This document shows positions 5,559-29,814 of a stretch of 47,174 nt of DNA, piece by piece. Under the pieces are notes generated by a model. That model searched no databases. It saw only the letters and a list, made by a program, of their open reading frames with translations, and was not told the DNA's origin. The position numbers were made by a program, and so were the translations under genes. The DNA comes from Armatimonadia bacterium. Its GTDB lineage: Bacteria; Armatimonadota; Zipacnadia; Zipacnadales; UBA11051. Position 1 is the first letter of the stretch. Each line of letters opens with the position of its first letter. The stretch spans positions 1-47,174 of the forward strand of contig JBDKRC010000180.1 in NCBI GenBank assembly GCA_039683575.1, in the 5' to 3' direction.

Positions 5559-6260
5559 CTAGTGGGCCGGTGAGCCGTTGGCGTAATACGCGATGTCCAG
5601 GGGCGCCTTCGTGTACTTGACCGGGCCCACGAAGGTCGAGGCCGGATCGTACGCCATCTTGTGCCACTTCGCGTGCCCGTCGGCGTAGACCATGTTGGCG
5701 CCCTCGTTGTGACGGGCGGGGATGAAGGCACTCTGATGCCAGGACGGACAGAAGAAGCGGCTCGAGTTGGAGCTGGGATAATCGACCGGACTGTGTGTCC
5801 AGTCCGAATCCGCCAGCAGCAGTGTCTCGGAGGGATAAACGATGGTCGCCATGGCAGTACCGGCACTGTTGCCAAGGATATTCAGGTTCACGCCGTAGTC
5901 GGTCGGAGCGGGGATATTGCCGCCAGCCGAACTCCAGTAGGCATAGCCGTTGTAACAGGGGCCATCGGCACTGGGACAGCGAAGCACTTGCAGGTTCTTG
6001 ACGTAGGGCTGCAGTAGACCCATCCACATGCAGTAGTAGGTGCGGGGGTTGTCGGCGATATAGTTGGGCGGGATGGTCTCGTCGTAGTCCTGGGCATATT
6101 GCATCATCGCCAGGCCAAGCTGCTTGCAGTTGTTCAGACAGCTGCTCTGTCGCGCCTTCTCACGCGCCTTGGCGAACACCGGGAACAAGATGGCCGCCAG
6201 AATGGCAATGATGGCGATTACGACCAGAAGCTCAATAAGTGTAAAACCGCGTCGTCTCAT
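5559..6260 (-). CDS. Prepilin-type N-terminal cleavage/methylation protein, DUF1559-like with H-X9-DG motif
   Basis: [10 protein letters not shown] motif, CPS, DYGVN and [14 protein letters not shown]. Same GGAGGATATAG-ATG context as 3040..3588. Confidence 0.93.
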
Positions 6261-6657: not shown

Positions 6658-9507
6658 TCACTGCACGCGCACGGTGAAGAGCAACTGTCCGGTCCCGCCG
6701 GTCAAGAGGCTGCCACCGAAGGTCCACACGATGGGACCCGTTCCGCCCACCGGTGGGGCCGTGATGTTGCAGGAGGTCAGATCCGCCGGCAAGGCGCCAT
6801 GTGAGGCCGAGACAAAGACAGTATAGGCGAGTGTGGAGTCATACACTACGAGGTCTTTCAGCGGGTTGCCGGACGTGTTGGCGTACGTGATGGTGTAGGT
6901 CACGTCCTGCCCCGGGGTGACCAGGGTCTTGTCCGGAACCTTCGTCAACGTCAGCCCCGTGTGCTCCGACACTGTCGTGCAGTCCCTGCGAGTAGTGATG
7001 CTGGTCAAGACAGGGGCGGAGTTGGTATAGGCGAAGGTGGCGCTGATGGCGGTGAGGTCAATGGCGCCAAGTGGCGCACTGACCGGCACCACGACCCGGA
7101 GAAGAACTGCGACCGTCTCACCGGCCGAGAGAGTAAGCGGGCCCGTTATGGCGGGTTCGCCCGCATCATAGATGCCATCCCCGTTCGTGTCCCGGTACAG
7201 GATCTGGTTCCAGCCCTCTACCGCCGGGTCCTGGGCCGAATTGAGCGCGAAGGTGACGGTGCCGCCGGAACCCGCACTGAACTGGTGTGCATACCAGACT
7301 ATGCTGCCCGGGATCACCGTGCGCTGCCAGTCCGGCAGAAAGCTGATGCCCTTCACGTCGCCGAAATCGACATTGACGTACTGAACGTCCGCCGCAGGTG
7401 TGAAGCTGACCGTGTCACTGGCACGATCATACGCACCCCCGGTATTGCCTACTGAGGCGCCGGTGGAGGCGTAATCTGCCAGTCCGCTTTCCACGACCTT
7501 CATGGCTGTGCCGACGGCGGTGTAGGGCACCCACAGGGCGTAGCTGCCCTGGGCGTCGGTGGAGGTCGCTTCATAGACCACGTCTGAGGCATTGGTAGCC
7601 TTCATCTCCACACTCGCCAGAGGCGCTTCAGTCCCGTTGCGCAGCCCGTCGTTGGCAACGCCGCTACCCATGCCGTTATCCTCAAACACCATCCCACGAA
7701 GCGTGAACCCGTGCCATAGGCCAAACCTCAGCCCAGTGACACTGGCGGTCGCCACCGTCACGCCAGTGATCTTCTGGTCGGGATGCTCGATCCCGAGCCA
7801 CCCGGACGGCAGGTAGGCAGTGGTGTCGTTGAGGGTACTATTGTCGTCGAGAATGACACTGTAGTCGCCATTGCTGATATTGGCGAAGTCGTAGGCTCCG
7901 CTGGTCGGATCCACGGCCACGGCCCTCACGGCGGCGCCACCGGCGGCGGGCACCAGCTTCGCGTACATCCCGGTCACGCCCGTTCCCGTCTCCATGGAGT
8001 CGAGTTTCTGGTTATGGTTCAGGTCCTCATAGACGGTGCCGGTGACATGGGCGGCAGGCAAGATCAGGACCGTGTCCGCCGCGAAGTTCTGCCTGTGGCA
8101 AGGACTGTCCGTGACGAAGCAACGAAGTACCATCACTGTGGCAGTTCCAACATTCGGGGCCGTAAAGCCGGTGGTCGCCGCAGCGGGATTGCTGAAGGTT
8201 CCCCCGTCCATGCTGGTCCATTGGTAAGTGTAGCCGCCGGCACCGCCACTTGCGATAGCGATCACTGGTGCAGTGGTCCCGCCGACGATCTGAGCTGGCA
8301 CGGTGATGGCTAGCCCCGGTCGGCGGTCGATGCCACTGAGCAAGAGGAAGTTGAGATAAGCACGCTGTGCCGCGACGTCGGCCGTACTGCTGCCGCTGAG
8401 GTCATGGCCCCCTATGTATAGCGCCATGCCACAGCTGCTATCGCCGTACGCCCGGCCGTAGGCGACAGCCGCCGCGGGGCCAGCGGACTTGCCATTCAGG
8501 ACGTCAGACTGCGTGGGATCCCAGACTGCGAGGGTAGTCGTCGGCCGCCACTGCCCACCCAGCGCCGGCATGAAGATCTGCTCCGAACCATCGGTGGTGG
8601 CCCCGTCGAGGGTTGACATGAACTGCATGATCGGGTGCGCGTCGTCCCTGTAGTTGTAGGGCGGGGAACCCTCCTTATGGTCGCCGAACAGTGTCAGTCT
8701 CGGGTCGCTGAGAAAGGCGCACTCATACTGTCCGGTAGCCGGGTTTATGAGGTTCTCGAAGGCACTCACACCGTGACATCCCGAAAAGAAGTACCCTCCG
8801 GCGTGTATGTAGTCGATCAGATAGTGGTGAGTACTCCAGGCCGGATCGGAATGGGGCAGAGAGTAGAGGTCTATGCAACGCGTAAGGTCGCTTGGCAGCC
8901 CAACCTTGTACGAAGTTGTTGGGATGCCTGCGGCATCATAGAAGGGTTTGATCAGATCTTCATTGGCGGTATCAATGAGCGTTCTTGGGAAGTAGGTGAC
9001 GGTGTTGTACACCGGGGCCGTGAAGGAACTGGTGGTCGGTCCGTATACGACCACGCCTTGCGATTTCCAGTTGTTGATGCTTGTCACAACCGAGTTGATG
9101 ACAAACTCCGCCGGCACAATGAAAGAGCCACCGGAGAAACTGATACCGTCGGCAACAAAGTCAACGCCATCCTTGCTCTTGGCGGGGTTGATGCTCCAGT
9201 AGAGCGGGATGCGGCTGTTGGTGACAATGTCATAGACGAGCCCGTAGGGCCGCAGGCCATTGCTGACCGTCTGAGGCACGACCCCCATGTTGATGATATA
9301 GGCGCCGGCAGGGAAGGTAGTGAGTGCCGCCGATGCCGGCACCGTGGCAGCCAGCATGCTGGACGCGAGAAGCAGCGCCCACCACACCACCGGGCGGCGA
9401 CGGCGCGGTACTGGCGCCAGCGCGGCGGGAGTGGCCGTCATCTCCCTGCTATCGCAGTGATACGGTGCCATTGAACCAGTCCTCGTGGGTTCGCACGTGT
9501 TGTTCAC
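6658..9507 (-). CDS. Secreted DUF11/SdrD-B-like domain protein, putative tip adhesin
   Basis: Signal peptide (RRRRPVVWWALLLASSMLAATVPASA), unique N-terminal domain, two SdrD-B-like GxVxED repeats and a C-terminal DUF11 (LTLTK...PGQDVTYTITYAN...VVYD). GTG start overlaps the upstream TGA; the start could be later. Confidence 0.8.
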   Translation of the reverse strand: MNNTCEPTRTGSMAPYHCDSREMTATPAALAPVPRRRRPVVWWALLLASSMLAATVPASAALTTFPAGAYIINMGVVPQTVSNGLRPYGLVYDIVTNSRIPLYWSINPAKSKDGVDFVADGISFSGGSFIVPAEFVINSVVTSINNWKSQGVVVYGPTTSSFTAPVYNTVTYFPRTLIDTANEDLIKPFYDAAGIPTTSYKVGLPSDLTRCIDLYSLPHSDPAWSTHHYLIDYIHAGGYFFSGCHGVSAFENLINPATGQYECAFLSDPRLTLFGDHKEGSPPYNYRDDAHPIMQFMSTLDGATTDGSEQIFMPALGGQWRPTTTLAVWDPTQSDVLNGKSAGPAAAVAYGRAYGDSSCGMALYIGGHDLSGSSTADVAAQRAYLNFLLLSGIDRRPGLAITVPAQIVGGTTAPVIAIASGGAGGYTYQWTSMDGGTFSNPAAATTGFTAPNVGTATVMVLRCFVTDSPCHRQNFAADTVLILPAAHVTGTVYEDLNHNQKLDSMETGTGVTGMYAKLVPAAGGAAVRAVAVDPTSGAYDFANISNGDYSVILDDNSTLNDTTAYLPSGWLGIEHPDQKITGVTVATASVTGLRFGLWHGFTLRGMVFEDNGMGSGVANDGLRNGTEAPLASVEMKATNASDVVYEATSTDAQGSYALWVPYTAVGTAMKVVESGLADYASTGASVGNTGGAYDRASDTVSFTPAADVQYVNVDFGDVKGISFLPDWQRTVIPGSIVWYAHQFSAGSGGTVTFALNSAQDPAVEGWNQILYRDTNGDGIYDAGEPAITGPLTLSAGETVAVLLRVVVPVSAPLGAIDLTAISATFAYTNSAPVLTSITTRRDCTTVSEHTGLTLTKVPDKTLVTPGQDVTYTITYANTSGNPLKDLVVYDSTLAYTVFVSASHGALPADLTSCNITAPPVGGTGPIVWTFGGSLLTGGTGQLLFTVRVQ

Positions 9508-12500
9508 GGTAGCGCCGCCCTGGCAGCAGGCGCGCCGCCGGCCTTCGCTTGCTCACCATCGCCTGATCGCTGGTGAAACTGTGCCGGGAAAGCCGTTTCA
9601 TCGAACTTGAAGCGGATTCGGAGGTAAGGCCCATCGGCCGTGTAGTTCTCGCCAACGAGATCATCATCGTGGAAGCCCGACCAGTTGTAGCCAGCCGCCA
9701 ACCACAGATTCCGCTTGAGCATGTACCCCAGCTCAGTGCCCACGGCCCAGAGTCTGCCGGAGGCGTCCGCAAAGTGGCTGCCGATCACTCCCAGATCAAA
9801 GCGCCGGCCCAGGTCCCTCGTGACCCGGCCTGACAGCAGGCTCGCAATGTGGGAGGTATTCAGGCCATCGGAGCGGTCATCCACCTGTTTCCAGGCGTAA
9901 TGCCCGGTCCAGATGGTTTGCCGATCTGACTGGTAGTTCAGGTCCATGGAGAGGATGTTGGTATGGCGACGAACCTGACAGTCAGGTACGCTGGTATCGT
10001 CGTCACGCAGCAATTCGTATCGCACCAGACCGTTCCAGCGGTCACGGTCGAGGTCGCGATAGGCGGCGCCAAGGCGAAGCCGATCCTGAGTATGCTCGCC
10101 CCCGCCGTCGTAGGAGGCGTTAGTGCGAACGTAGCGTCCGAGCAACGCCCAGTCTTCGTCCAGTTTGCGCGCCAGACCGAGCGTGAGCAGCGTCGAATCA
10201 CTGGTAGCGCCGTCGCGCCACTCGGCCCTCGCCGTTCCCACCCAGAGTGGATCGCGGGTGTATTCGACCGCCATCGTGATGGCCCGAGACCGGTTGTCGT
10301 CCTCCATACCCCTAAGGGGCGTGATACGCTCGAAGCTGGTGTCGACTGCCAGCCCTTCGCTCAGGTGCCACCGATTGCGCAGCCCGATCGCCGCTTCAGT
10401 GTCGCGACCGCTGAAGGCATCCCGGACCCGGTATTCACTGAACAGGTGCCCGTCGCGCATGTAGTCGCTTTCCAAGCCGAAGAGCGTCGTCTGCTGCCGG
10501 TGTGTGCTGTCCAGGGCATAGCGGCCATCTATGGAGGATATCAGCTCATGCCGGGCGTAAAGCCGGGTGCGGTTGGCTATCTGCTGTTCACCGCCCAGCG
10601 CCAGGACACGGCGGCTGGAGTCGTGAACATCCTGTTCATACTCGCCATAGAGGCTCGTTTGCCGCCGGGGTCCGAGTTGCGCGCTGAGACGGCCGCGGAC
10701 AGTGGTGAAGTCGATTTCTTCCTCATCCGACTGGCCCGGTACGGTAGCGGACAGTGATCCCTTCGCGTGGCGCATGCCCAGCTCCAGCAGCATGTTCGAC
10801 CGCAGGCGCTGCTCCAGCGACAACATGTAACCGTTGAGTTCTGTGTCGCTTGCCACGTCCTCAGTGCGGGTTATCTCCCCCAGCAGCCGGCGATCTGAGC
10901 CCAGCGTCTGGGTCGCCTTCACGCAGAACTCCTGTCTGCCGCGGCTGAGTGAGGCCGAGGGATTGTCAAAGGCCTCGTCTGTGCGGGCCGAATATAGCCG
11001 CAGGTTCAGGCGCGGCGAATTGTGCAGGTACTCCAGACGTCTGCCGTCCCCGCGACCGAGGCTGTCGCTGCGCGTCTGAGCCCATTCGGCTATCACCGTG
11101 TCGTACCGGCTTGGCCTGAAGGCCACGCTGGCGCTCCGCAAGTCAAAGGCATCGTCCGGGTTCTGATCATCCACCAGGGTACCCGACAACTCCACCCGGT
11201 CATTCAGCTTCACTCTGCCGGTAGCACCGAAGAGCCAGAACTTGGGGCCGTTGCCGTCCGCCTCATACGTGACGCGGAGGTAGACCGGGTTGAAGTTGCT
11301 GTCGACGCTCGGAACGGGTGTGCGGAGGATGATGCGCCCGGTAAGAGGGTCTATCTCATAGTCCGCAAACCGCAGCAGGGGATCCCTCTTCAAGATGACA
11401 GCCGGCTGCTGACGGTCGCGCGTGATGATCTCCACTTGCTCACTGTTCTCGACAAAGGGCAGCACAGTGAGCGTGAACGGGCCCGAAGTGCCAGAGGCGC
11501 GGAACTCGTCCACAACCTGTTCGGTGCTGTCACGGCTGGCGAACACGTCGAAGATCGAAGACTGATTCTCGATGTGGGAGGCCACGCCGGTCAGGCTGCG
11601 GTAGTAGGAGCCGAGTTCGGCGTATTCGCCGTCCAAACGGGTGCTGTAATCGCCATACATCAGATATGACGGCCCGTGGTCCATGCGCGCGTAAAGCCGG
11701 CTGGTGGACTGTGCGTCGAACCCGCGCAACGATGAGTCGCCATATACGGGGTAGAACTCGTCCGGCTGGATGTCGCGGAAGAGCCGCTGGTCTGCTTCCT
11801 GCTCGGAATCATACCCCATCGTAATCAGATAGTCCTCGCCTACGCGCCCCTTGAGAAACAGCGCTGCCCGCCCGGACAGGCGCCAGTCGCCGTCGCTACT
11901 GACGTGCGTGAGGCTGCGCAACTCGTTCTCAAAGGGATCGAAGGGCTGTACCAGGCCATCGCCCACCGCGCCGGAGCGGAAGTTGAGCTTGGCCTCCAGC
12001 ACGCCCAGGCCCAGCAGCGGGCGCAGGTCTGGCAGGAAACGAACCACGGATTCGCTCTTCAGCAGCCCACTGGACACTATCACTCTGGCGGCTCCCGGCT
12101 CTGCGGGAGCCAGCAGTGCCACCTCTCGGCTGCCGCCCTCGACGAACACTTGCACGCCCGGCTCGTTGGGGTCCAGATCGTCCACATCCCAGCGACCGAG
12201 GCTGGCTTCGAGGGTCACGGGAGTGCGGGCAGAGACCACTGTGCCCTGCTGGTCAGCGATGCTGATGCGGATCGGCACGGCGGTCTTACCATCAGCAGGC
12301 TGGCCCTGGGTTGGCATCTCGACGTTGAGCTTGCCCGGGCGGCCAGGCGCGATGATCGTGATCTCAGCCTTCCCCCTGGCATTGCCGAAGCTGTCGCTCT
12401 CCAGCAATTCGAGCTGGTTGGCGCCCGGCCGCAGCTCCAGACCGATGTACTGGACTACCTGCAGTTGCTTCTCCGGGACCGAGGCCCGCGACGCGACGCG

Positions 12501-15470
12501 GTGAGCTGGGACTTCAGCACCGTTGAGCTTGAGTGTGAGTGAAGACCCCATGCGGCCCTTCGCCTGCACGTTCACCTGCGCCATCGGCATCGTGTCCTGA
12601 TCCTTCAGACCCACGAAACCGAGCGTGTTGTCCAACGTAGGCAGGAGCGCTTCCAGGGGTGCTGTCGCTGCCGCTCGCACCGGCGGATCAGGCAGCGACG
12701 GGTCGGCGAGCTCAGACTCCGACGGCAGTGTTGACCTGTAGATGCGGTCGGATGAGCCCGCATCGGCGCCAATCATCCCGTTGGCCGGGCGTCCCCGGAC
12801 GTCAGACAACTCCGGCGGCAGGCCGTCGGGCGAGACCGTCTCCTGCACCGCCCGGTTCACCTCGGGGACCACGACCTCGCCCAGGCTGCGGCGGCGTTCG
12901 ACCTCGGCACTCAGTGCCGCGGTAGGCTTGACCAGGGCGAAGTTGATCTTCTGCAGTTGTCCGTTCTTGAGGTCTGCAAGGACGCTGCCCCCGTCATCGA
13001 GGTGGCGGCGCGTGATGGGACTGAGGTTCGCGCCTGGCGGCAGCGTGACCGGATCTACCTTCAGGACGCGGCTACCGGAACGCAGGCCATAGAGACTGTA
13101 TTTGCCCTCGCTGTCTGTGACCGCGTAGGTGCCATCTTCAAGATAGATCCTGACGCCGGGCACACCGGGCTCGCTGTGGTCGTGCAGGCCGTTCTCGTTG
13201 CCATCCACGAAGATCCTGCCCACGACCACGGAGCGGTCGGAGAAGACTCCGGCCTCAAGCCGTACTGTCGCCGAGGCGAAGTTCGAGAGCACCGGACCCC
13301 ATGCCGACTCCGCCTCTGCCCGCGCCCTATTGGTAGCATCGCCAAGCACGGCCCCGGGGCCGACGCGTACGCGGTACGTAAGGCGGACCTCGGTCTCCGG
13401 CTCCAGCTCTCCCAACTCGAAGGTCAGGGCGGGGCCTGCCCCGCCGGCGGGGTCCGCAATGGCCTGGCCATCAAGCCGGGCTGTGCCGGCGACATAGGAG
13501 AAGCCCGCTGGCAAGCGGTCGGACAGGCTCACCGCCTGCAGCAGCACGTTGCTCGCGTTGCGGACCTGCAGGCGATAGTCCACGAAGTCGCCGATGGTCA
13601 CGACAGAGCGGGAAGCCTGCTTCTGCACGAAGAGGCCCGTGGGCGGCGGCGCATCCAACGGAATATCAAAGCGGACAAATCCCACAGCATCAGTGATGGT
13701 GAAGCTCCTGCCGTAGGAGGCGTCGGCGCCGATCAGGCGGTCTGACGGTAGCTCAGTCGGTGCCAGGGCGGTCGGGAAATGATAGTTGCCAGGCGGCGCA
13801 ACCACAAACTGATAGGTACTCGCCTTCACCATGCAGAAGGCGAAGCAACCGTTGCTTGCGGTTTCGATGGCACAGGGGGCGGCGGTTACGCCGTCGGCCA
13901 GATACACCACGGCCGGTTCTCCGGGCTTGCCGCCGTTCCCCTCGCCCGTGACATCAATCAGCGTCACCCGGGCTCCGGTGATAGGCTGGTTGGTGTGGCT
14001 GTCGAAAACCACATTCGTCGGGTCCATCTGGAGGCAAGCCTGGGCGGTCTGACCGTCAGATCCCGTGGCTCGCGCCGTGATGGTGTCGTTGGTGATGCTG
14101 TCGATGACGCCATCACCGCTCGACCCCTGCTCGGCCCGCCGCGTCGGCACCGGTGGCACGATCCGGAAGATACCGGTATTGGGGCCAGTCTCCACGGCGG
14201 CAAACGTCTCCACGTCGCCGGTCAGGGCCGAGCTAAATGTGATCGTCACAGTCTCGACGACAGCCGGTTCCTTATTGTCGTAAGCGATAAGGGCCTGCAC
14301 ATATAGGGGGGTGCCTACAGCGCCAACGCAGGTGGTGCGCGCAAAGGTGCCATCGACGTAGAAGGCGACTTGCGGCGGCAGCGTCGCCAGGACCAGTTCC
14401 ACCCGGTTGGAGGGTGCCTCCCCGGGGCGGTCGGTCACCGGATCGGTGTACTGTACCCACGCGATATTGGGGATCGTCCCTGAGGCAATGTCGCTGATGC
14501 GCACGGCGAACCCAAAGCCAAAGCCGTTCCCGGGAACGGCGGATTCCACCCCATAGCCGACTGCATCAATACTACTCAGATCCGACGGGGCGGCGGAGAC
14601 GTAAGTGTCAGCCGGAGCGCCCGAAAGGTGATACAGAGGGACGCCGCTCCCGGGGTCCGAGAGACTCGCGAAGGTGGTGTTCACCGGGATGGCATCGCGA
14701 AAGCAGACCAGCGAGCGGGTCTGCCCGTCAACAGTAATGGAATGTGGACCTGGCTGAACCCGTCCCTCCAGGTCGGCCCTGAGAGTGAAGGTGACGAGCT
14801 GCCCCCTCTCCGGGCTCAGATCACTCGCGCTCTTAGTCACCTTCCACGTGACCGTACCGATGGCCCGGACACAATCGGTATTGGATACGGTCAGCCCCTG
14901 CAGCACGGTCTTGGCCGTGACCTTGACGCGCGCCTCGCAGCCCGCCCCGGCGGCTCCAAGCACCCGGCCCTCGACCACCAGGTCCAGGCAGGCCTCTGGT
15001 TCCAACTGTACCGGCGTCGTGGGCAGGATGGTGGGTTCGCCGGGATCCGCCACTCCGCTGCCATTGACGTCATGCACCAGTCGCAGACCACCGAGGTCGG
15101 AATCGTCGGCAGGCAGATTCTCCAGGCTCAGCAGGCACTCGCTGGTAACGTTGCCGGTGTTGGTCAGGCAGTGCGGCAGGCAGGCAATGGTGCCCACCGG
15201 GGCCTCGATGGAGTTGTCAGCGACGAGACTGAGAGCCTCCAGGGCTTGGATCTGGACAACGACGGTGTTGGAGCGCACATTCAACTGCACTCCGGTGACT
15301 GAATCAGTGTAGGTCAGGTCAGCGTAGTTGCGGATGGAGATGCCCGCCAGAGGCTGTGGGCCCTGTTTCTGTCCAGTCCACCCCAGTTGCCCCAGGCACA
15401 GGCACAGGACAACGGCCAGCCCGATAAGGGGCCTGGGAGAGGCTGCACCTGATGGATAGTGGCTAATCAT
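9504..15470 (-). CDS. Very large outer-membrane protein: N-terminal DUF11/SdrD-B/Ig-like domains plus C-terminal predicted beta-barrel
   Basis: 2015-aa ORF (longest start 15551, ATG 15470 preferred). Two complete DUF11 repeats, GRIFVDGNENG SdrD-B-like domain, PADGKTAV Ig-like domain, then several hundred residues of amphipathic strands ending in YLRIRFKFDE. Confidence 0.8.
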   Translation of the reverse strand: MISHYPSGAASPRPLIGLAVVLCLCLGQLGWTGQKQGPQPLAGISIRNYADLTYTDSVTGVQLNVRSNTVVVQIQALEALSLVADNSIEAPVGTIACLPHCLTNTGNVTSECLLSLENLPADDSDLGGLRLVHDVNGSGVADPGEPTILPTTPVQLEPEACLDLVVEGRVLGAAGAGCEARVKVTAKTVLQGLTVSNTDCVRAIGTVTWKVTKSASDLSPERGQLVTFTLRADLEGRVQPGPHSITVDGQTRSLVCFRDAIPVNTTFASLSDPGSGVPLYHLSGAPADTYVSAAPSDLSSIDAVGYGVESAVPGNGFGFGFAVRISDIASGTIPNIAWVQYTDPVTDRPGEAPSNRVELVLATLPPQVAFYVDGTFARTTCVGAVGTPLYVQALIAYDNKEPAVVETVTITFSSALTGDVETFAAVETGPNTGIFRIVPPVPTRRAEQGSSGDGVIDSITNDTITARATGSDGQTAQACLQMDPTNVVFDSHTNQPITGARVTLIDVTGEGNGGKPGEPAVVYLADGVTAAPCAIETASNGCFAFCMVKASTYQFVVAPPGNYHFPTALAPTELPSDRLIGADASYGRSFTITDAVGFVRFDIPLDAPPPTGLFVQKQASRSVVTIGDFVDYRLQVRNASNVLLQAVSLSDRLPAGFSYVAGTARLDGQAIADPAGGAGPALTFELGELEPETEVRLTYRVRVGPGAVLGDATNRARAEAESAWGPVLSNFASATVRLEAGVFSDRSVVVGRIFVDGNENGLHDHSEPGVPGVRIYLEDGTYAVTDSEGKYSLYGLRSGSRVLKVDPVTLPPGANLSPITRRHLDDGGSVLADLKNGQLQKINFALVKPTAALSAEVERRRSLGEVVVPEVNRAVQETVSPDGLPPELSDVRGRPANGMIGADAGSSDRIYRSTLPSESELADPSLPDPPVRAAATAPLEALLPTLDNTLGFVGLKDQDTMPMAQVNVQAKGRMGSSLTLKLNGAEVPAHRVASRASVPEKQLQVVQYIGLELRPGANQLELLESDSFGNARGKAEITIIAPGRPGKLNVEMPTQGQPADGKTAVPIRISIADQQGTVVSARTPVTLEASLGRWDVDDLDPNEPGVQVFVEGGSREVALLAPAEPGAARVIVSSGLLKSESVVRFLPDLRPLLGLGVLEAKLNFRSGAVGDGLVQPFDPFENELRSLTHVSSDGDWRLSGRAALFLKGRVGEDYLITMGYDSEQEADQRLFRDIQPDEFYPVYGDSSLRGFDAQSTSRLYARMDHGPSYLMYGDYSTRLDGEYAELGSYYRSLTGVASHIENQSSIFDVFASRDSTEQVVDEFRASGTSGPFTLTVLPFVENSEQVEIITRDRQQPAVILKRDPLLRFADYEIDPLTGRIILRTPVPSVDSNFNPVYLRVTYEADGNGPKFWLFGATGRVKLNDRVELSGTLVDDQNPDDAFDLRSASVAFRPSRYDTVIAEWAQTRSDSLGRGDGRRLEYLHNSPRLNLRLYSARTDEAFDNPSASLSRGRQEFCVKATQTLGSDRRLLGEITRTEDVASDTELNGYMLSLEQRLRSNMLLELGMRHAKGSLSATVPGQSDEEEIDFTTVRGRLSAQLGPRRQTSLYGEYEQDVHDSSRRVLALGGEQQIANRTRLYARHELISSIDGRYALDSTHRQQTTLFGLESDYMRDGHLFSEYRVRDAFSGRDTEAAIGLRNRWHLSEGLAVDTSFERITPLRGMEDDNRSRAITMAVEYTRDPLWVGTARAEWRDGATSDSTLLTLGLARKLDEDWALLGRYVRTNASYDGGGEHTQDRLRLGAAYRDLDRDRWNGLVRYELLRDDDTSVPDCQVRRHTNILSMDLNYQSDRQTIWTGHYAWKQVDDRSDGLNTSHIASLLSGRVTRDLGRRFDLGVIGSHFADASGRLWAVGTELGYMLKRNLWLAAGYNWSGFHDDDLVGENYTADGPYLRIRFKFDETAFPAQFHQRSGDGEQAKAGGAPAARAALP

Positions 15471-15581
15471 GGCGGACAGTCCCTCTGGGGTTCTCCGCCG
15501 GCTTCCACATGCTTGTGGCATATGGAAGCCGGCGGCTGACTGCATAGACAAGCGATCTCGCAGGCTCTTGCCTCTGAACTG

Positions 15582-18233
15582 CTACTGCGTGATCTTCACC
15601 CCAAAGTAGACCGTGGCGCTGTCACCCGCGCCCAGAGTTCCAATGTTGGCAACGATGCTGCCCGCCGCGCCATCAGCCGGGGCGACGGCCGCGTGCTGGG
15701 TAGCGTCGGCCAGCACGTACGTCGCCGCACCAGTCGGGGCAACCGTGCCGTCTCCGTTGTCATACAGCGTGAACGCCGGCGTAGCATCGGTCACTACGAC
15801 GTTCAGGGCGGTAGCGATGCCGGTGTTGGTGACGACCAGCTTGTAGCGCACGCACTGACCCGGCAGGCCGTCGATGTTGCTGGCGACATAGGCACCCTCG
15901 GGCGCTCCATCAGCGTTGGCATCGAGAGCCTGCAGCTTCTGCAGGGTAACGTCACCCGCGATGACGGTGGTATTGTTGGTGGCCTTCGCCGGCGCCGGAA
16001 CTGCGCCACTGTAGCCCGTGTTGCTGGTGGTGGCTGTGACGGTGGTTATGTTCTGACTGCCCATGGGCACACCAGGAGACGCGTATACCACTACGAATAG
16101 TGTGGCAGACTCTCCGAGATCCAGCCCCGCGGCAGTGCTGGCACCGTTCGTGCCGCCAGTCAGTACGCTCAGGTCCTGGATCATGATGTCCCCGGCGCCG
16201 AGCACACCGTCGTTGTCCTTGTCCCAATACAGGGCGGAGGTGAAGCCACTGGTGGAGTTCGCCAGCGACAGCGAGACGTCGCTGCCCACATGGTCGCCCT
16301 CGACCAGGTTGCTCTGGTTGGTGATGGTGTGCGAGTAGACCACCGAGCCGCCTGGATACAGCTGCCCGATGTTGTTCGGCGTGATCGTCAGGCCGCGCAC
16401 CGCGTTGACGGTCACGGCATCATGCTTCCAGTCGTAGGAGGCGGTGGTCGGCGAGATTGCCCGGAAGTACAGGTCGTAAGTCCCTGCCAGCATCCCTACC
16501 GGGAGGGTGACCTCCGCATTCACCTGCATGGCGGAGTTGGCGTTGACCATGCCGGTGTTGGAGATGACCGTGCCAGCGGTGTTCTTGAACAGCACGGATA
16601 CTCCCGCCGGCAGTGTGATGCTGCCCAGGGTGGCATCAGAAGTGACCTGCAGGTTGTAGGTATTAGCCACATCACTTGTATTGTTCACGAACAGGCTGAA
16701 GGTCTGCGTTGTACCGGGATTGCCGGCTATGGTGGTGACCGCAGTCACTTCAGGTCCTGCCCCTGCGCCGGTAGCAGCGGGGTCGCCCAGGGCGGCGCCA
16801 TTGGTGATGTCAACTGTGCTGCCCACGATCTCCCCGAGTGTGTCAGTCGCCACTGCGGACACCGTGGTATCATTCGCCGAGGTCGCGCGCTTCTGCACAA
16901 CGCAGTCGGCCGTGCCTGAGGCACTCGCCGGCAGGAACGCCTTGAGGATGACGCTGTACGCGGCCCCGGGGGCCAGAGGACCCGTGTCGGGGATGCCATT
17001 GCCGTTGGTGTCCAGCAACTGCGACACGCCGCCTGACTTGTACAGCACGAAGTTGGTCCCCGCCGGGAAGGTATTGCCCGGCTCGATGGTGATGTCGAAC
17101 GTGTCGGTGGCAGTGCCGGTATTGGTAATCACGTTCTCAAACGTGACCCATGAGCCCTGATTGGCACTCGCCTCCGTGTCGCCGGTCGCCGTCACACCGG
17201 CGGTCGCGGTGACAAGGAAGGTGACCACGTTGGTCTGGGTGCTGATGGTGTTGGCGGCACCGTCTTCATACGAAACGTTGGCGACGTTGTTGATGGGTCC
17301 CGGAGGCGCGCTGGCACTGACCATCACCTGGAACGTCAACGTTCCCGAATCGCCTGAGGGCATGCTGGCGATGGTAGCGGTGACACGCCCGGCCGTCGTG
17401 ATGTTGTAGTCGTAGACGATCCCGGCGGGATCCCCGAGGGCTGCGTCGGTCAGGGACGTGCCCGACTTGCTCCACAGCCCCGAGCCTGCGACGTAGGTCA
17501 TGTTCGCGGGGATGAGATCGGTAATCACCACGTTCTTGGCTTCGAGGTTGCCGGTATTGGTGTACTGGATGGTGTAGGTTCGAGGGCCGCTACCCGCGAG
17601 ACCGGAGGCCAGGTCAATCGACTTCAGCGCGGTGACGACCGCATTGCTGGTGACCTGCGCGGTGTCGGTGTTTGTCTGCGTGACGCTGGGTGTGAAAGCG
17701 CTGGCTCCCGTCAGCGTGATCTGCCCCGAATTCCCCGCAACCGCTGTCGCCGGCACAGTGGCCACGACCACCACCCGGAAGGTCGACCCGGCCGTCAGCG
17801 GAAGAGTCGCGGCGATCGGGGTCAGGTTGTCCGGCAGGCCGTCGCCGTTGGTGTCGGCGTAGATCCTGACGTTCTGCAGATCGAAGTTGTCGCCGGCAAG
17901 TTGGGCGAACGAGAGATTGAAGGTGTCTGAGCCATTCCCGGTATTGGCCAAGGTATGCGGGAAAGCAACCTGCCCTCCCGGCGTTACGTATTTCGTGTTG
18001 TCCTGCACCAGCGTAAAGGCCGCGACCTGTTGGACCTCCACGTAGATGATGTTGGAAGTCACTTCATGCTGGACGCCTGAGGCATCGGTATACGTGGCCG
18101 TTGCCTGGTTACCGATCATGGACCCGGCCGGGGGGAGTGCCGCCAGCCCCACCGTGGTCGCCATGACCACTGCCGCTAGTACCCCTGCGATCATCAAACC
18201 TACCCTCTTGGGCGGTACGGTCATCGGGTACAT
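15582..18233 (-). CDS. Secreted multi-DUF11/Ig-repeat protein, putative major fibre subunit
   Basis: Strong RBS GGAGGT and a signal peptide. Thr/Ala/Val-rich tandem Ig-like repeats (xNTGN..DTF), DxNxDG Ca-binding-like loops and DUF11 motifs. Confidence 0.88.
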   Translation of the reverse strand: MYPMTVPPKRVGLMIAGVLAAVVMATTVGLAALPPAGSMIGNQATATYTDASGVQHEVTSNIIYVEVQQVAAFTLVQDNTKYVTPGGQVAFPHTLANTGNGSDTFNLSFAQLAGDNFDLQNVRIYADTNGDGLPDNLTPIAATLPLTAGSTFRVVVVATVPATAVAGNSGQITLTGASAFTPSVTQTNTDTAQVTSNAVVTALKSIDLASGLAGSGPRTYTIQYTNTGNLEAKNVVITDLIPANMTYVAGSGLWSKSGTSLTDAALGDPAGIVYDYNITTAGRVTATIASMPSGDSGTLTFQVMVSASAPPGPINNVANVSYEDGAANTISTQTNVVTFLVTATAGVTATGDTEASANQGSWVTFENVITNTGTATDTFDITIEPGNTFPAGTNFVLYKSGGVSQLLDTNGNGIPDTGPLAPGAAYSVILKAFLPASASGTADCVVQKRATSANDTTVSAVATDTLGEIVGSTVDITNGAALGDPAATGAGAGPEVTAVTTIAGNPGTTQTFSLFVNNTSDVANTYNLQVTSDATLGSITLPAGVSVLFKNTAGTVISNTGMVNANSAMQVNAEVTLPVGMLAGTYDLYFRAISPTTASYDWKHDAVTVNAVRGLTITPNNIGQLYPGGSVVYSHTITNQSNLVEGDHVGSDVSLSLANSTSGFTSALYWDKDNDGVLGAGDIMIQDLSVLTGGTNGASTAAGLDLGESATLFVVVYASPGVPMGSQNITTVTATTSNTGYSGAVPAPAKATNNTTVIAGDVTLQKLQALDANADGAPEGAYVASNIDGLPGQCVRYKLVVTNTGIATALNVVVTDATPAFTLYDNGDGTVAPTGAATYVLADATQHAAVAPADGAAGSIVANIGTLGAGDSATVYFGVKITQ

Positions 18234-18332: not shown

Positions 18333-18836
18333 TTAGCCTCGGTTGGCCACCGTCACGCGAGCCAACAATTGGACCGGCTTGCCTGGCTTGAGACTGTCAA
18401 TGATCCAGCGCAGCGCGAGGTACTCAGAAGCCGGAACCTCAACTTCGCTGACTTGCCCGGAAGGCGAGGTCACCTTGCGCTTTAGCGGTATCAGGCTGAA
18501 CTTGACCGCATCCTGACTTGCCATTTGCGGCGCGGGGGTCGCACTGTTCTTGAGGTAACACGTGCCCTGCGGCAGCGGCAGCGTCGCTGCGACCCTGGTC
18601 ATTGCGTACGCTGCACGGTTCGTGTAGGAGAGCCGGTATTCGAGCACTTCACCCGGGTACACTTTCGTCGCCGGCGTGAACTGCTCCACCCCTTTGTTGT
18701 CCACCGTCACCTTCAAGACATCCAGCTGCACTCTCATCGGCGGGTCCGCTGCCCTCAGCACGCTGAACGAAGTCAGCACAACGACTGTTAGTGCTGCCAG
18801 ACCAACTGACAACCGGCGCATACGTGGGATCATCAT
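18333..18836 (-). CDS. Small secreted single DUF11-like domain protein
   Basis: ATG at 18836/18833 after AGGGAGG. Signal peptide, then PGEVLEYRLSYTN...LPQGTCY...LRWIIDSLKPG...ARVTV. Confidence 0.8.
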   Translation of the reverse strand: MMIPRMRRLSVGLAALTVVVLTSFSVLRAADPPMRVQLDVLKVTVDNKGVEQFTPATKVYPGEVLEYRLSYTNRAAYAMTRVAATLPLPQGTCYLKNSATPAPQMASQDAVKFSLIPLKRKVTSPSGQVSEVEVPASEYLALRWIIDSLKPGKPVQLLARVTVANRG

Positions 18837-18932
18837 CCGCCTCCCTCTCATATTTGATGCGTGACTCAACCGCGCATCACCCACTTCACGACGAGATGTC
18901 ATAGATGAAGTTCTAGAAGCGTGCGACAAATA

Positions 18933-19130: not shown

Positions 19131-21797
19131 ATGAGCGCGCGCAAACGACCGCCGGGCAATCTGCTTCGGCTGCGGCCGCCCGGAATCACCGGGGTGATTC
19201 CGCGCCCGCGTCTTGCCGACAAGCTTGCTGCTGTTGAGGCAAGCCGCGTGGTCCTGATGGTCGCGCCGGCAGGCAGTGGCAAGACTACGGCGGCAGCTCA
19301 GTGGCTTCACGAGGTTGGCCATCCCTTCGCCTGGGTCTCACTGGACGCACACCACGATGATCTGAGTACCTTCACTACTGTCGTCTCAGACGCCCTGGAG
19401 CTTGGTCTGCAGCGCGCCCCGCGCCACCTGCGACTCCTGCTACACGCAACCCCTCCATTGGTGCCGGAGACCGTCTCGGACGCCCTGGTCGCCGACCTCG
19501 CCGCAGCAGACGACCCCTTCATCCTCACACTTGACGACTGCCACTATCTGCATTCGCCGCCGATGCTCGAGACGATGCGGCTGGCGATCAGGTACCTGCC
19601 TGACAACGTGCAGCTATTCCTGCTGTCACGACGCCCACTCGATTTCGCCCTGACACGGTTGCGCCTTTCCAACGCCATCGCCGAGCTTGGAGCCGCTGAT
19701 CTGCGTTTCTGCTTCGATGAGATTCAGGCTCTGGCTGGGCGCGAGCTAGGGGTAGTACTCGGGGATGAGGAGCTCAATGCCCTGGAGGAGCGTACCAGGG
19801 GCTGGGCGGCGGGATTGCGCCTCGCCCTGTTGGGAATGCAGCAGGGCGCCTCGCCCACGGAGTTCCTGCACAGGTTCAGCGGCCGCCACCGGTATGTGCA
19901 CCAGTACTTCACTGAGGAGGTCCTGAAGCAAGAACCGCCCCACATCCACAGCTTTCTCCTGCATACCTGCATCGCCGACGCCGTGTGTGAGGATCTGTGT
20001 GCGGCCGTGCTGCCACGGGACGGGACGCCGCGAGCGACCCTGAGGGAGGTAGTGCAGCGCGGCCTCTTCACCTTCTCACGGGATGATGAGGACCGCTGGT
20101 TCTCCTACCATCCTCTGCTCAGGGACTCCCTTGCCACCCGGCTGGCGCAGGTTGAGGACCCCGAGGCCATCAGCGCACTCCATAGCCGCGCTGCCGATTG
20201 GTTTGCGGCCCATCACCGGCCGGAGGAGGCAATCTGTCATGCCGCCATCGGCGGCCGTCGAGACCTGGCCGTCGGAATGGTAGCAGAGCAGCTTCCCCGC
20301 TGCCTCGCGGATGATGACCACCACACCCTGGCGCGATGGCTGGGCCGTTTCAGCCCCCGGGACATCGAGAACAGCATCCACCTGACGTTTGCACAGGCCT
20401 GCGTCCATGCGCGCAACTGCCAACCCGCCAACTTGTCCGCGGTGCTTCACAAGCTCGAGAGTTTCCCCCAGAAACAGCGTAGTATTCTCAGTCGCCCACC
20501 GTATCTCTGCCATCTGGCGCGCCTCAAACAGGAAGTCGCCATCTGGCAAGGCGACTGGCACACCGTGTTGGGCCTGGCTCAGCAGATGAGAAGCCTGGCG
20601 CCATTTGAGCTTTCACCGACTCACATATGCACGGGCCTCGGCGCCCTTGCCCTGCAGAGACTCGGACGACTTGAGGAGGCACTCCGCTGGTTAGGTGATC
20701 TCCGATCTACGGCCAGCGCGGACGCCATCGAGTTCTTTGACATCTGCGACGGTCTTATTCGCGTTGCTGAGGCCGATCTGCCTGAGTTGCAGCGCCTCAC
20801 CAGCCGCCTCAATGAGATGGCGGAACACACAGCACGGCCCAGAGCGAGGCTCTGGTCACACTTCTTCGGGGGGCTGCTCTGCTATGAATCTGGGCGCCTG
20901 CCCGAGGCGCTCGCGGAGTTCAGGCAGGGCTTGGAGCTTTCCGTTCACGGACCGGCGGAACTGCGGGCGGAGTGTCTGGTGGGACTGGCTGTCTCACACC
21001 TTGGGGTCGGCGACCTCAACGCCGCCGAGGACGTCGCCTGCGCGCTGGAGCGGGAGAATGCGACTCTGGGTTCCGATAGCTATGCTCTGCAACTGCGGTG
21101 GCTCCGGATGCGCATAGCCCTGGGGCGCGGACAACTCGCCGGAGGTCAGGTGCTACCGAGACCACTCAACCCGCCTCGGTTTGGGATGCTGCCATCGGTG
21201 TTGCTGCCCCATCACCTTTGCGCCCGGGCTGCTGTGCTGCATGGCGATGAGCAGGACGCGGGCAACGCACTTGAGTTGCTCGACCAGGTTCAGGAGGCGG
21301 CGGAAGCTGCTCACGATAGGCGGGCGGGGATCGGGGTCAAAGCCGTCCGGGCGCTGGCCCTGGCCAAACTCGGCCAACCCGAGCCGGCCGCCGCGGAACT
21401 ACAGGAAGCACTGCAGCACGGCGCTCCCGGCGACTTTGTCCGTACCTTCGTTGATCTCGGCGCGCCAATGAAGGCCCTGCTGCAAACGGCGACGCTTCCG
21501 GCAACCCACAGGCCGAGAGTTGAGGCTCTGCTGGCAGCCTTCACTAGACACGCGCCGGGAAAACAGCCCGGCCTGCTCAGCGAGCGCGAAGTCGAGGTCC
21601 TGGAGTTGCTGGCCACTCAGCTGTCGAGGAAGGAAATCGCCCAGCACCTGCACATCTCTGTGCTGACCGTGCGCAGTCACAACTACCGCATCTACAAGAA
21701 GTTGGGGGTCAAGACGCGCAAGCAGGCGCTCAGCGAAGCTCGGCGACGGCAACTGCTGCCACCGCCACAGACCGAGGCCGGCACTGACGAGGGATGA
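19131..21797 (+). CDS. MalT-like LuxR-family (STAND/LAL) ATP-dependent transcriptional regulator
   Basis: Walker A APAGSGKTT, WVSLD, Walker B LTLDDCH, TRGWAAGLRL, helical sensor region and C-terminal LuxR HTH (LSEREVEVLELL...IAQHLHISVLTVRSH...IYKKLGV). Confidence 0.93.
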   Translation: MSARKRPPGNLLRLRPPGITGVIPRPRLADKLAAVEASRVVLMVAPAGSGKTTAAAQWLHEVGHPFAWVSLDAHHDDLSTFTTVVSDALELGLQRAPRHLRLLLHATPPLVPETVSDALVADLAAADDPFILTLDDCHYLHSPPMLETMRLAIRYLPDNVQLFLLSRRPLDFALTRLRLSNAIAELGAADLRFCFDEIQALAGRELGVVLGDEELNALEERTRGWAAGLRLALLGMQQGASPTEFLHRFSGRHRYVHQYFTEEVLKQEPPHIHSFLLHTCIADAVCEDLCAAVLPRDGTPRATLREVVQRGLFTFSRDDEDRWFSYHPLLRDSLATRLAQVEDPEAISALHSRAADWFAAHHRPEEAICHAAIGGRRDLAVGMVAEQLPRCLADDDHHTLARWLGRFSPRDIENSIHLTFAQACVHARNCQPANLSAVLHKLESFPQKQRSILSRPPYLCHLARLKQEVAIWQGDWHTVLGLAQQMRSLAPFELSPTHICTGLGALALQRLGRLEEALRWLGDLRSTASADAIEFFDICDGLIRVAEADLPELQRLTSRLNEMAEHTARPRARLWSHFFGGLLCYESGRLPEALAEFRQGLELSVHGPAELRAECLVGLAVSHLGVGDLNAAEDVACALERENATLGSDSYALQLRWLRMRIALGRGQLAGGQVLPRPLNPPRFGMLPSVLLPHHLCARAAVLHGDEQDAGNALELLDQVQEAAEAAHDRRAGIGVKAVRALALAKLGQPEPAAAELQEALQHGAPGDFVRTFVDLGAPMKALLQTATLPATHRPRVEALLAAFTRHAPGKQPGLLSEREVEVLELLATQLSRKEIAQHLHISVLTVRSHNYRIYKKLGVKTRKQALSEARRRQLLPPPQTEAGTDEG

Positions 21798-28027: not shown

Positions 28028-29638
28028 ATGCCCATCCACACCTGGCTCTCCACTTCCCTCACCCGCTGGTTCCCAGGCAGCGAACCCGCCTCCACCCGCG
28101 CCCTCAAGCTCCAGGCCCTTCGCGGCGAACAGGTCTCCTTCCAGGCCTGTGTGAAGGTCACCGGCACCGACCAGCACACCGACATGAACGCCTCGCTGGC
28201 CGCTGACTCGGCGCTTCAGACCCGCCTGCGGCGCGTGGGCTGCGTGCCGGTGCCACACCACAACACACTCACCCCGGAAGACGAACTCGACGGGGTCGGC
28301 CACATCCCCGGCTACGTCCCGGATGTGCTGCTTGAGGAAACCGAAGTCCGGCTTGCACCTAACGAGACGCAGGCTTTCTGGATCACCGTCAAAGTGCCCG
28401 CAGAGGCCCCTGAGGGCACGTACGCGCTGTCTCTGACCTTCCAGATCGGCGATCAGACCCGCAAGCTGCAGGCCACTGTGCAGGTCCTGCCCTACTCCCT
28501 GCAGCCGCGCCAGAATTTCCCGGTGACCCAGTGGTTCTACGCCGACTCCCTGTGCGACTGGTACAAGCTCGACCCATGGCAAAAGCCGCTCTGGACGCTT
28601 CTGCGCCGCTACTTCGACTGCTATGTGGGCCACGGGTTCGACACGCTGCTGACCCCGCTGTTCACCCCGCCGCTCGATGGCATCAAGCGCCCGACGCAAC
28701 TGCTCGGGGTCAGCAAGCAGGGCCGGCGATACCAGTTTGACTGGAGCGAGGTAGAGCGCTGGGTGAAGACGGCGAAGGCCGCCGGAGTGCAGAATTTCGA
28801 GTGGTCGCACTTCTTCACGCAGTGGGGTGTACAGCACGCGATCCGCATCTACGAGGGGCATGGGCTGGAGGAGAAGCTGCTGTGGCCCGCGGACACCGGG
28901 GCCACCTCAACGACCTACAGGGGCTTTCTGGGGCAGCTTCTGCCGGAACTCTACAACTTCCTGAAGAGCAAGCGCCTGCTGGGCAAGTCCTTCTTCCACG
29001 TCTCGGACGAGCCCCACGGCGAGGAGCACCGGGCCAACTACATGGCCGCCCGCGCCCTGCTAAAGGAAGTCGCGCCCTGGATCAAAACCATGGACGCCCT
29101 GAGCGAGATAGACTATGGGCGCCAGGGGCTCACGGACATGCCGGTGCCGTCGATCAAGGTCACGAAACAGTATGCGGACGAGGGAATCGCGAGCTGGACG
29201 TACTTCTGCTGCGGGCCGCGGGGACGGTACCTGAACCGGCTGCACGACACGCCGCTGCCCAAGCTGCGCATGGCCGGGTGGCTGTTCCACCGCTTCCAGC
29301 GGCTCGGCTTTTTGCACTGGGGGTTCAACTACTGGTACAAGAGCCAGACGCGGCAGCTCATAGACCCGTACGTGGTCACAGACGGGCTTTTGTGGCCGGG
29401 TTGGGCCTATGGGGATACGACGCTCGTGTACCCGGGGGCCGAGGGTCCGGTGGAGTCGATTCGCGGGCAGGTGTTCGCCGAATCCCTGCAAGATCTGGCG
29501 CTGTTGCAGACGGCCGGGGTGGCGGGCGATGACAAACTCCTCCAGCCGCTGAAGGACTTCGATGACTTCCCGAAGGACGAAAAGTGGCAGCAAGAGGCGC
29601 GGAAGGCAGTGCTCAAGCGACTCAAAACAGGGGGCTAG
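28028..29638 (+). CDS. DUF4091-domain / GH123-like putative glycoside hydrolase
   Basis: LRGEQVSFQ, VSDEP, WTYFCCGP, GFLHWGFNYW and GDTTLVYPG...ESIR motifs. Confidence 0.85.
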   Translation: MPIHTWLSTSLTRWFPGSEPASTRALKLQALRGEQVSFQACVKVTGTDQHTDMNASLAADSALQTRLRRVGCVPVPHHNTLTPEDELDGVGHIPGYVPDVLLEETEVRLAPNETQAFWITVKVPAEAPEGTYALSLTFQIGDQTRKLQATVQVLPYSLQPRQNFPVTQWFYADSLCDWYKLDPWQKPLWTLLRRYFDCYVGHGFDTLLTPLFTPPLDGIKRPTQLLGVSKQGRRYQFDWSEVERWVKTAKAAGVQNFEWSHFFTQWGVQHAIRIYEGHGLEEKLLWPADTGATSTTYRGFLGQLLPELYNFLKSKRLLGKSFFHVSDEPHGEEHRANYMAARALLKEVAPWIKTMDALSEIDYGRQGLTDMPVPSIKVTKQYADEGIASWTYFCCGPRGRYLNRLHDTPLPKLRMAGWLFHRFQRLGFLHWGFNYWYKSQTRQLIDPYVVTDGLLWPGWAYGDTTLVYPGAEGPVESIRGQVFAESLQDLALLQTAGVAGDDKLLQPLKDFDDFPKDEKWQQEARKAVLKRLKTGG

Positions 29639-29716
29639 GCTGTCCATTTCAGGGCCCAAACGCGACAGTTGAAGTTGACCAATGTAACGATTTGGGCCGA
29701 AAATCAGGACTGATTT

Positions 29717-29766
29717 CGGGGTTCGCATGGGGCCTTTGAGGGCCGCCCGCGAACCCCGTTTTGTTT
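29717..29766 (+). terminator. Intrinsic terminator
   Basis: Stem cggggttcgc...gcgaaccccg followed by ttttgttt, between convergent genes. Confidence 0.6.
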
Positions 29767-29814
29767 ATTGTATACAATGACTCGAATCGCTACCTCAATG
29801 GCGACAGTCCCGGC

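Follow-up and report, generated by a model that had tools for sequence, protein, structure and literature searches.

A CLIPPER/DUF11 domain divided between subunit ends points to a probable self-completing surface fiber encoded by an Armatimonadia operon

A 47,174-nucleotide contig of an Armatimonadia bacterium (JBDKRC010000180.1, assembly GCA_039683575.1), analyzed here at full length and referred to as the window, carries four co-directional, tightly spaced genes whose products, p198, p883, p2015 and p949, each combine a signal-like N-terminal segment with a DUF11/TIGR01451 match. An initial annotation of this DNA proposed that the residues of a spontaneous Lys-Asn isopeptide bond are divided between the two ends of these proteins, with Lys and Asp in C-terminal half-domains and Asn in N-terminal ones. 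The locus raises the question of whether a single immunoglobulin (Ig)-like domain has indeed been cut in two, with its halves meeting between subunits, and whether the completed domain then forms the bond. We observe a split domain, complementarity and conservation of its halves, coupled residue loss, a shared operon order, fused relatives and a confident docking model. Completion of the domain between subunits is, in our estimate, very probable, and we put such completion together with a covalent lock at a probability of roughly 60%, judged from sequences and models.

The second gene of the operon encodes p883, the putative shaft subunit (883 aa; 15582-18233, minus strand, as are all operon coordinates below), an open reading frame (ORF) that matches Pfam DUF11 and TIGR01451 and is laid out as a signal peptide, a short hairpin, about six Ig-like domains and a C-terminal half-domain. 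The half-domain, termed the acceptor (aa 755-883; 15585-15971), resembles a DUF11/CLIPPER domain minus its last two strands and ends at the stop codon, while the hairpin directly after the signal peptide, termed the donor (aa 34-72; 18018-18134), corresponds to those last two strands. Between them lies a complete internal copy (aa 196-345; 17199-17648) with its own triad, Lys204/Asp239/Asn316. When terminal pieces were scanned separately with Pfam DUF11 (PF01345; cut-off 24.6 bits, profile length 114), the last domain of p883 scored 25.8 bits over profile positions 14-84, that of p949 31.7 bits over positions 2-84 and the internal domain of p883 40.1 bits over positions 19-100, all above the gathering score, and the last domain of p198 fell below it with 19.5 bits over positions 9-84. 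The three terminal matches thus all stop at profile position 84, which lies 1-4 residues from the protein end. The short N-terminal donor pieces, scanned in isolation, gave no Pfam DUF11 match.

The relationship between the two ends of p883 emerged from profile-profile comparison with hhalign, in which sub-alignments cut from 120 p883 homologs were compared to the 150-column complete internal domain. The acceptor aligned to columns 12-111 (probability 97.1%, E 5e-11) and the 39-residue stretch that follows the signal peptide to columns 115-150 (87.9%, E 3e-6), two complementary halves with no overlap. The spacings Asn42-Tyr48 (6 residues) and Asn42-Asn61 (19 residues) of the donor match those of Asn316-Tyr322 and Asn316-Asn335 in the internal domain. 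A complete nine-strand CnaA-like sandwich in one chain is seen in the internal domain, but not in the last domains of p883, p949 or p198. An AlphaFold2 (AF2) model of the p883 monomer is all-beta, with a mean predicted local distance difference test score (pLDDT) of 91.5. As read from these alignments, the terminal DUF11/CLIPPER domain of p883 is split across the two ends of the protein.

The annotation had taken DUF11 to be a CnaA-like domain with a Lys, Asp, Asn pattern, and a solved structure bears this out. According to the available text of PMC12617251, DUF11 has been renamed CLIPPER, a CnaA-like domain of fibrillar adhesins, and the crystal structure 9IFR contains an intramolecular Lys715-Asn806 bond with Asp748 as the third residue of the triad; a K715A variant lost about 35 °C of thermal stability. 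The 9IFR sequence aligns with the complete DUF11 domain of p2015 (E 1.8e-5), its Lys falling on the first-strand Lys, its LTLND Asp on the Asp of SLSDRLP and Asn-806 on the Asn of an N-x-A motif; by residue count, the Asp in this alignment lies one position off the Asp-748 given in the available text of PMC12617251. Because they align to Asn-806 via the p2015 internal domain, Asn42 of p883 (GNQA, starting at aa 41; codon 18108-18110) and Asn75 of p2015 (RNYA, aa 74; 15327-15329) are the candidate bonding residues. Their proposed partners in p883 are Lys766 (TLQK, aa 763; codon 15936-15938) as the isopeptide Lys and Asp816 (VVTDATP, aa 813; codon 15786-15788) as the catalytic Asp.

All motifs quoted in the annotation for p883, p2015 and p949 were found at the positions given. 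It had offered two sets of Asn candidates, both said to be confined to the donors: GNQA/RNYA, which are indeed homologous to Asn-806 and present in donors only, and TSN/RSN (p883 aa 59, with Asn61 at codon 18051-18053; p2015 aa 93). The latter were rejected as bonding residues, since both the 9IFR and the internal-domain alignments place the Asn-806 equivalent at GNQA/RNYA; Asn61 instead sits on the last strand, where it matches Asn335 of the internal domain and forms a further conserved Asn. The residues bonded in 9IFR accordingly have aligned and conserved counterparts in the operon proteins, but on two polypeptides. Searches of the Protein Data Bank (PDB) with phmmer, using the p883 acceptor piece and internal domain, did not recover 9IFR and returned only weak matches to phage tail-fiber and R4 surface proteins, and a whole-family profile had no PDB match at E<=0.1. 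The link to 9IFR therefore rests on the p2015 internal domain and the Pfam model.

The two halves are distributed unequally over the other operon proteins. The fourth gene encodes p949 (949 aa; 6658-9507), the putative tip, which by Pfam consists of an N-terminal head, SdrD_B-like domains and a C-terminal acceptor half (6661-6966) and has no donor. This acceptor aligns to columns 5-111 of the internal domain (hhalign, 97.5%) and carries Lys856 (TLTK, aa 853; 6940-6942) and Asp890 (VVYDST, aa 887; 6838-6840); in p949 homologs the Lys is present in 37/38 and the Asp in 38/38. The third gene encodes p2015 (2015 aa; 9504-15551; Pfam DUF11 and SdrD_B), the putative anchor, in which a donor hairpin (aa 67-104; 15240-15353) is followed by an Ig-like stalk of DUF11 and SdrD_B domains and a C-terminal barrel, with no terminal acceptor half. 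Its first 300 aa show homology to p883 (E 5e-17), and in its family the N-terminal segments align to columns 115-147 of the internal domain (hhalign, 93.9%). On sequence grounds, p883 would be donor plus acceptor, p949 acceptor alone and p2015 donor alone. The annotation's statement that the acceptor halves of shaft and tip keep both Lys and Asp agrees with these terminal domains, in which the two residues are near-invariant across the families.

To follow this arrangement across genomes, we used one-genome-per-species contigs, in which 419 of 424 matched stretches encode a relative and 80 loci were kept for counts. These loci span records from Betaproteobacteria, Gammaproteobacteria, Verrucomicrobiota, Armatimonadota, Eisenbacteria and Thermodesulfovibrionales, and carriers include the cultured strains Thiobacillus denitrificans, Uliginosibacterium and Aquincola agrisoli. 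A p198-like ORF is present in 79/80 loci and a p2015-like ORF in 74/80, with five of the six loci that have none ending no more than 260 bases from p883. The order p198, p883, p2015 is conserved in 73 of the 74 loci holding all three genes, and a p949-like ORF is next in line in 40 of the 49 loci in which 3 kb or more was available. A hidden Markov model (HMM) of the donor matched 80/81 p883-family ORFs, 0/79 p198-family ORFs, 0/43 p949-family ORFs and no other ORF of the loci; with iterated HMM searches, a donor-like N-terminus was found in 71/80 p2015-family ORFs, and 64 of these 71 keep the donor Asn.

The remaining protein, p198 (18333-18929), is the small secreted product of the first gene. 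Its family carries a conserved insertion of about 30 residues and has Thr at the Asp position in 64/80 members and Arg (34) or Lys (29) at the Lys position. It could, judging from these substitutions, be a non-reactive acceptor that caps the fiber or that holds or chaperones donor hairpins. A role as a PapD-like chaperone was considered and rejected, the sole Pfam signal of p198 being its weak DUF11 match.

The conservation of the proposed triad was assessed in homologs of p883. A word-indexed search scored 8000 candidates, of which 864 reached E<=1e-5, and the 120 listed were used for residue counts; they are 853-924 aa long, come from several phyla and, apart from one 99% copy, share 47-56% identity with p883. 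In these listed homologs Asn42 and Asn61 are both invariant (120/120), and Lys766 and Asp816 are each present in 117/120, compared to 115/120 for Lys204, 119/120 for Asp239 and 119/120 for Asn316 of the internal triad. Across the 883 residues, Lys is conserved at 80% or above in just three columns (204, 448 and 766), two of which hold the first-strand Lys of a DUF11 domain. An exhaustive search returned 21,594 proteins at E<=0.001, presumably for the most part generic DUF11 proteins, from which 150 representatives clustered at 50% identity were listed; 125 of the 134 listed representatives of 780-1100 aa read Lys/Asp/Asn/Asn at the four positions in the automatic alignment. When the nine exceptions were inspected, one (P0153) proved to have neither Lys nor Asp, and none was found to be missing just one of the two. 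In the others the first strand lay outside the cut stretch (two), a Lys that is present was misaligned (one), the N-terminus was absent (two), Asn61 was changed (two), or Asn42 was shifted and position 61 was Glu (one).

Lys766 and Asp816 are lost together. Among the 120 listed homologs, the three sequences without Lys766 are the same three that lack Asp816 (P0029, P0093 and P0103). In a FastTree phylogeny of 252 sequences, P0093 and P0103 are sisters and P0029 falls in their clade of ten, the remaining members of which retain both residues; P0153 is distant, its common ancestor with these three spanning 166 leaves. These positions imply two or three separate joint losses. In the genome loci, 79/81 shafts have Lys and Asp. 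The shaft of locus L014 has Ile and Asn at these positions, with Lys and Asp retained in its tip and Asn in its anchor, and the shaft of locus L056 has Thr and Asn, with Leu at the Asn position of its anchor.

Naturally fused relatives show the two halves side by side. Two of the 150 listed representatives, P0123 (2023 aa) and P0122 (3865 aa), consist of shaft units fused in tandem, from two up to four or more; both are predicted metagenomic proteins, for which a gene-calling error is possible. At five junctions in these proteins, a donor-HMM match begins 3-5 residues beyond a full acceptor-HMM match, the linker corresponding to the P-x-A-G-x-x of the mature N-terminus. By their sequence, the fusions restore both halves to one intact domain, in the order acceptor of one unit, then donor of the next.

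We also modeled the shaft-shaft joint, with the p883 acceptor (745-883) in complex with the p883 donor (33-76), using an alignment of 75 rows (p883 and 74 of the 120 listed homologs) that contained none of the three sequences without Lys and Asp. The interface score ipSAE was 0.74 in each of three runs, and the best of three controls reached 0.00; the runs gave 113-120 contacts with a partner pLDDT of 78-80 and at least 93% contact agreement. In a benchmark, the mark was reached by 58/80 solved complexes and 2/110 mismatched pairs, although with a custom alignment this is only a rough guide here. The interface joins stretches 760-768, 807-817 and 881-883 to stretches 33-34, 38-51 and 58-68. 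Donor strand 42-50 runs antiparallel to 809-816 (pairs 814:46, 812:48 and 816:44), Asp816 also touches residue 45, and residue 764 contacts residue 46. Contact is also made between the chain ends, 881-883 and 33-34, which is what a single domain cut in two would show.

We propose that the operon would encode a surface fiber built by completing the split CLIPPER domain between subunits. The N-terminal hairpin of one subunit would insert into the C-terminal half-domain of a more distal one, giving a chain that runs tip, shaft (repeated), anchor, with each N-terminus facing away from the cell. At the base, p2015 would contribute its donor, then its stalk, then a giant outer-membrane barrel that holds the fiber. 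Once the domain is completed, Lys766 on the first strand, Asp816 and the incoming Asn42 would, in most lineages, form an autocatalytic Lys-Asn isopeptide, and subunits would be locked with no need for a sortase, a PapD-type chaperone or an usher. Polymerization would presumably take place in vivo in this manner, with export probably through or beside the p2015 barrel. The annotation's description of the chain as sortase-independent fits the genome, which is 96.4% complete and in profile searches contains no match to Sortase (PF04203), PapD_N (PF00345; the same search was positive in an E. coli control) or Usher (PF00577). There is likewise no Pfam usher match in p2015 and no LPxTG motif in p198, p883, p2015 or p949.

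The C-terminal 840 aa of p2015 (9507-12026) are predicted by AF2 (mean pLDDT 77.9) and Foldseek to form an outer-membrane beta-barrel of about 32 long antiparallel strands. Foldseek matches in the PDB were exclusively to large outer-membrane barrels, namely SlpA, Cir/TonB-dependent receptors, LptD, MtrB, FimD and SprA, with template-modeling (TM) scores of 0.14-0.28; the resemblance to FimD is unspecific, with TM values of 0.15-0.22 by query and at most 0.26 by target. If the model is right, the barrel may represent a new family that combines anchor and pore in one. At the other end of the proposed fiber, the head domain of p949 (aa 55-420; 8248-9345) matches no Pfam family and in the ESM Atlas resembles nameless domains of surface proteins that are type IX secretion system (T9SS)-sorted, carry SprB repeats or belong to the OmpA family (TM by query 0.88-0.91).

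Several observations weigh against a covalent, trans-completed fiber, and most of them would fit a fiber in which hairpins are donated head to tail and the joint stays non-covalent, with Lys, Asp and Asn kept for packing or hydrogen bonding from an ancestral intact domain. The proposal is drawn from genes and models, and in the docking model residues 766, 816 and 42 are each listed at the interface and not as contacting one another. Part of the docking score may reflect likeness to intact CLIPPER folds. The whole architecture and operon are kept in P0029, P0093, P0103, P0153, L014 and L056, which have lost Lys766 and Asp816, and Asn42 is invariant even in such shafts, so its role may be also, or only, structural; in L014 the Lys and Asp retained by the tip would explain why Asn42 is kept. 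Seven of the 71 anchor donors have no Asn (Ser in five, Ala in one, Leu in one; loci L013, L015, L023, L024, L036, L046 and L056), such that the anchor joint looks not to be always covalent and these anchors look like natural non-covalent variants. The p198 family, too, is without both Lys and Asp. Not every CLIPPER domain forms the bond, as stated in the available text of PMC12617251, and oligomers of the TasA-family protein BsaA are stable in sodium dodecyl sulfate (SDS) without an isopeptide (10.1101/2024.11.04.621531, available text). We nonetheless consider a purely non-covalent joint unlikely. Lys, Asp and Asn are near-invariant among homologs that are only about 50% identical, Lys and Asp have been lost only jointly and in two or three separate lineages, two of the three Lys columns conserved in the entire protein are first-strand DUF11 Lys, and the homologous triad is bonded in 9IFR (PMC12617251, available text).

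A different objection concerns the partner of each hairpin and not the bond. The AF2 monomer assigns the p883 donor strands a pLDDT of 84-95, and they could pack in cis, either on the C-terminal domain of the same protein or on its first domain; p883 might then be a monomeric adhesin, a circularly closed rod whose own hairpin fills its own half-domain and which forms no fiber. Co-evolution signals would be blind to the distinction between cis and trans. Such self-complementation appears very improbable to us, given that the tip has an acceptor and no donor, that the anchor has a donor and no acceptor, that the fusions place an acceptor before the following unit's donor, an order that corresponds to trans, and that the two ends of a rod of about six Ig domains would need to meet. 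That the halves are an artifact, with errors in gene calling or assembly truncating ordinary DUF11 repeats next to an unrelated N-terminal motif, is hardly credible: nothing in its favor was found beyond the lack of a Pfam DUF11 match for isolated donors, and against it stand the same ends in 120/120 listed homologs and in 80/81 p883-family ORFs from independent genomes, stop codons at one profile position in three families and significant profile-profile alignments. Completion of the split domain between subunits, with a covalent lock in most lineages, is thus the reading we prefer, and the interpretation offered in the initial annotation is overall supported, as every part of it that could be tested in silico held against sequences and models.

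The proposed fiber shares features with several known assemblies. Like chaperone-usher pili (type 1, P and Csu), it would have a tip, shaft and terminator logic, a basal outer-membrane barrel and the same subunit polarity; however, the donation would involve two strands and not a single one, the barrel forms part of the final subunit and is of far greater size, and a covalent lock is proposed. Gram-positive pili assembled by sortase are likewise covalent, Lys-linked chains of Ig-like pilins, but no sortase or LPxTG match accompanies the genes described here. SpyTag/SpyCatcher was engineered from a split CnaB2 domain, the halves of which reconstitute and bond. In contrast, the split found here is natural, the domain is CnaA-like and not CnaB, and the donor half consists of a two-strand hairpin.

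The closest relatives in sequence are the CLIPPER/DUF11 domains of 9IFR and PMC12617251, which, in the available text of that paper, belong to the same family and have the Lys on the first strand, the Asp, and the Asn on the penultimate strand, and of which p883 contains one intact copy. The difference is that the terminal copy in p883 is cut after strand 7 and a second polypeptide supplies its Asn-bearing strands, which would make the bond intermolecular; the text of PMC12617251 contains neither 'donor' nor 'split' and surveys intramolecular bonds only. In mechanism, the proposal is similar to what the available text of 10.1101/2024.11.04.621531 describes for Clostridium perfringens BsaA, in which an N-terminal segment enters the sheet of the next subunit and a spontaneous Asn-Lys isopeptide forms with an acidic catalyst, a 'donor-strand exchange and lock' whose mutants lose oligomerization. 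BsaA differs in having a TasA/camelysin fold, an N-E-K triad and single-domain, SipW-processed monoderm subunits with no outer-membrane anchor (10.1101/2024.11.04.621531, available text). As the TasA/camelysin family is absent among the Pfam matches of p198, p883, p2015 and p949, the likeness is mechanistic only. Threads of Sulfolobus acidocaldarius, built from Saci_0406, also combine donor-strand complementation with proposed inter-subunit isopeptides and no known enzyme, but they are archaeal, with no Pfam domain and no CnaA-type triad (PMC9715654, available text). The label of a natural Tag/Catcher-like pair given in the annotation is therefore apt, though not unprecedented, since the principle of a donor strand with a spontaneous isopeptide is not new, as seen in the available texts on Sulfolobus threads (PMC9715654) and BsaA (10.1101/2024.11.04.621531).

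A full-text literature search, beyond whose reach most subscription journals lie, found no paper on a split CLIPPER/DUF11 fiber; the tafi paper (PMC11821415) was set aside, as it concerns DUF1102 and not DUF11. Tentatively, and at somewhat less than even odds, we suggest that these loci define a widespread and undescribed class of diderm fiber in which a two-strand Tag and a seven-strand Catcher covalently bond tip, shaft and anchor, a roughly 32-strand barrel doubles as anchor and export pore, assembly does without a sortase, PapD-type chaperone or usher, and p198 acts as a non-reactive, reversible Catcher for donor hairpins.

There is no ATP outside the cell. If the proposal is correct, polymerization there would be driven and locked by a split domain that folds and by an amide bond that it makes itself, and, provided that the bond forms, diderm bacteria would assemble a pilus without an assembly enzyme. 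With their differing sequences, the joints of tip, shaft and anchor could in that case supply natural, orthogonal Tag/Catcher pairs derived from a CnaA-like fold. Natural non-reactive variants, namely shafts without Lys and Asp, Ser-bearing anchors and p198, would show what the bond contributes. The assembly would also offer a function for many proteins annotated merely as 'DUF11 domain-containing' or 'beta strand repeat-containing', and, being common and carried by cultured strains, it is directly testable.

The surroundings of the operon hold a few further features. Divergent from it and adjoining it upstream is a gene for a MalT/LuxR-type regulator of 888 aa (19131-21797, plus strand; Pfam TPR_MalT, GerE and AAA_16). 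Directly downstream of the p949 end lie genes for DUF1559/N_methyl (prepilin-type) proteins at 3040-3588 and 5559-6260, both on the minus strand, neighbors of a kind that might hint at a planctomycete. Farther along the window, at about 29000-31000, the GC skew, about -0.16 at 24-26 kb, reverses to +0.28 at 30-32 kb, with a cumulative-skew minimum near 30 kb; a change of gene strand or a replication landmark could lie behind this.

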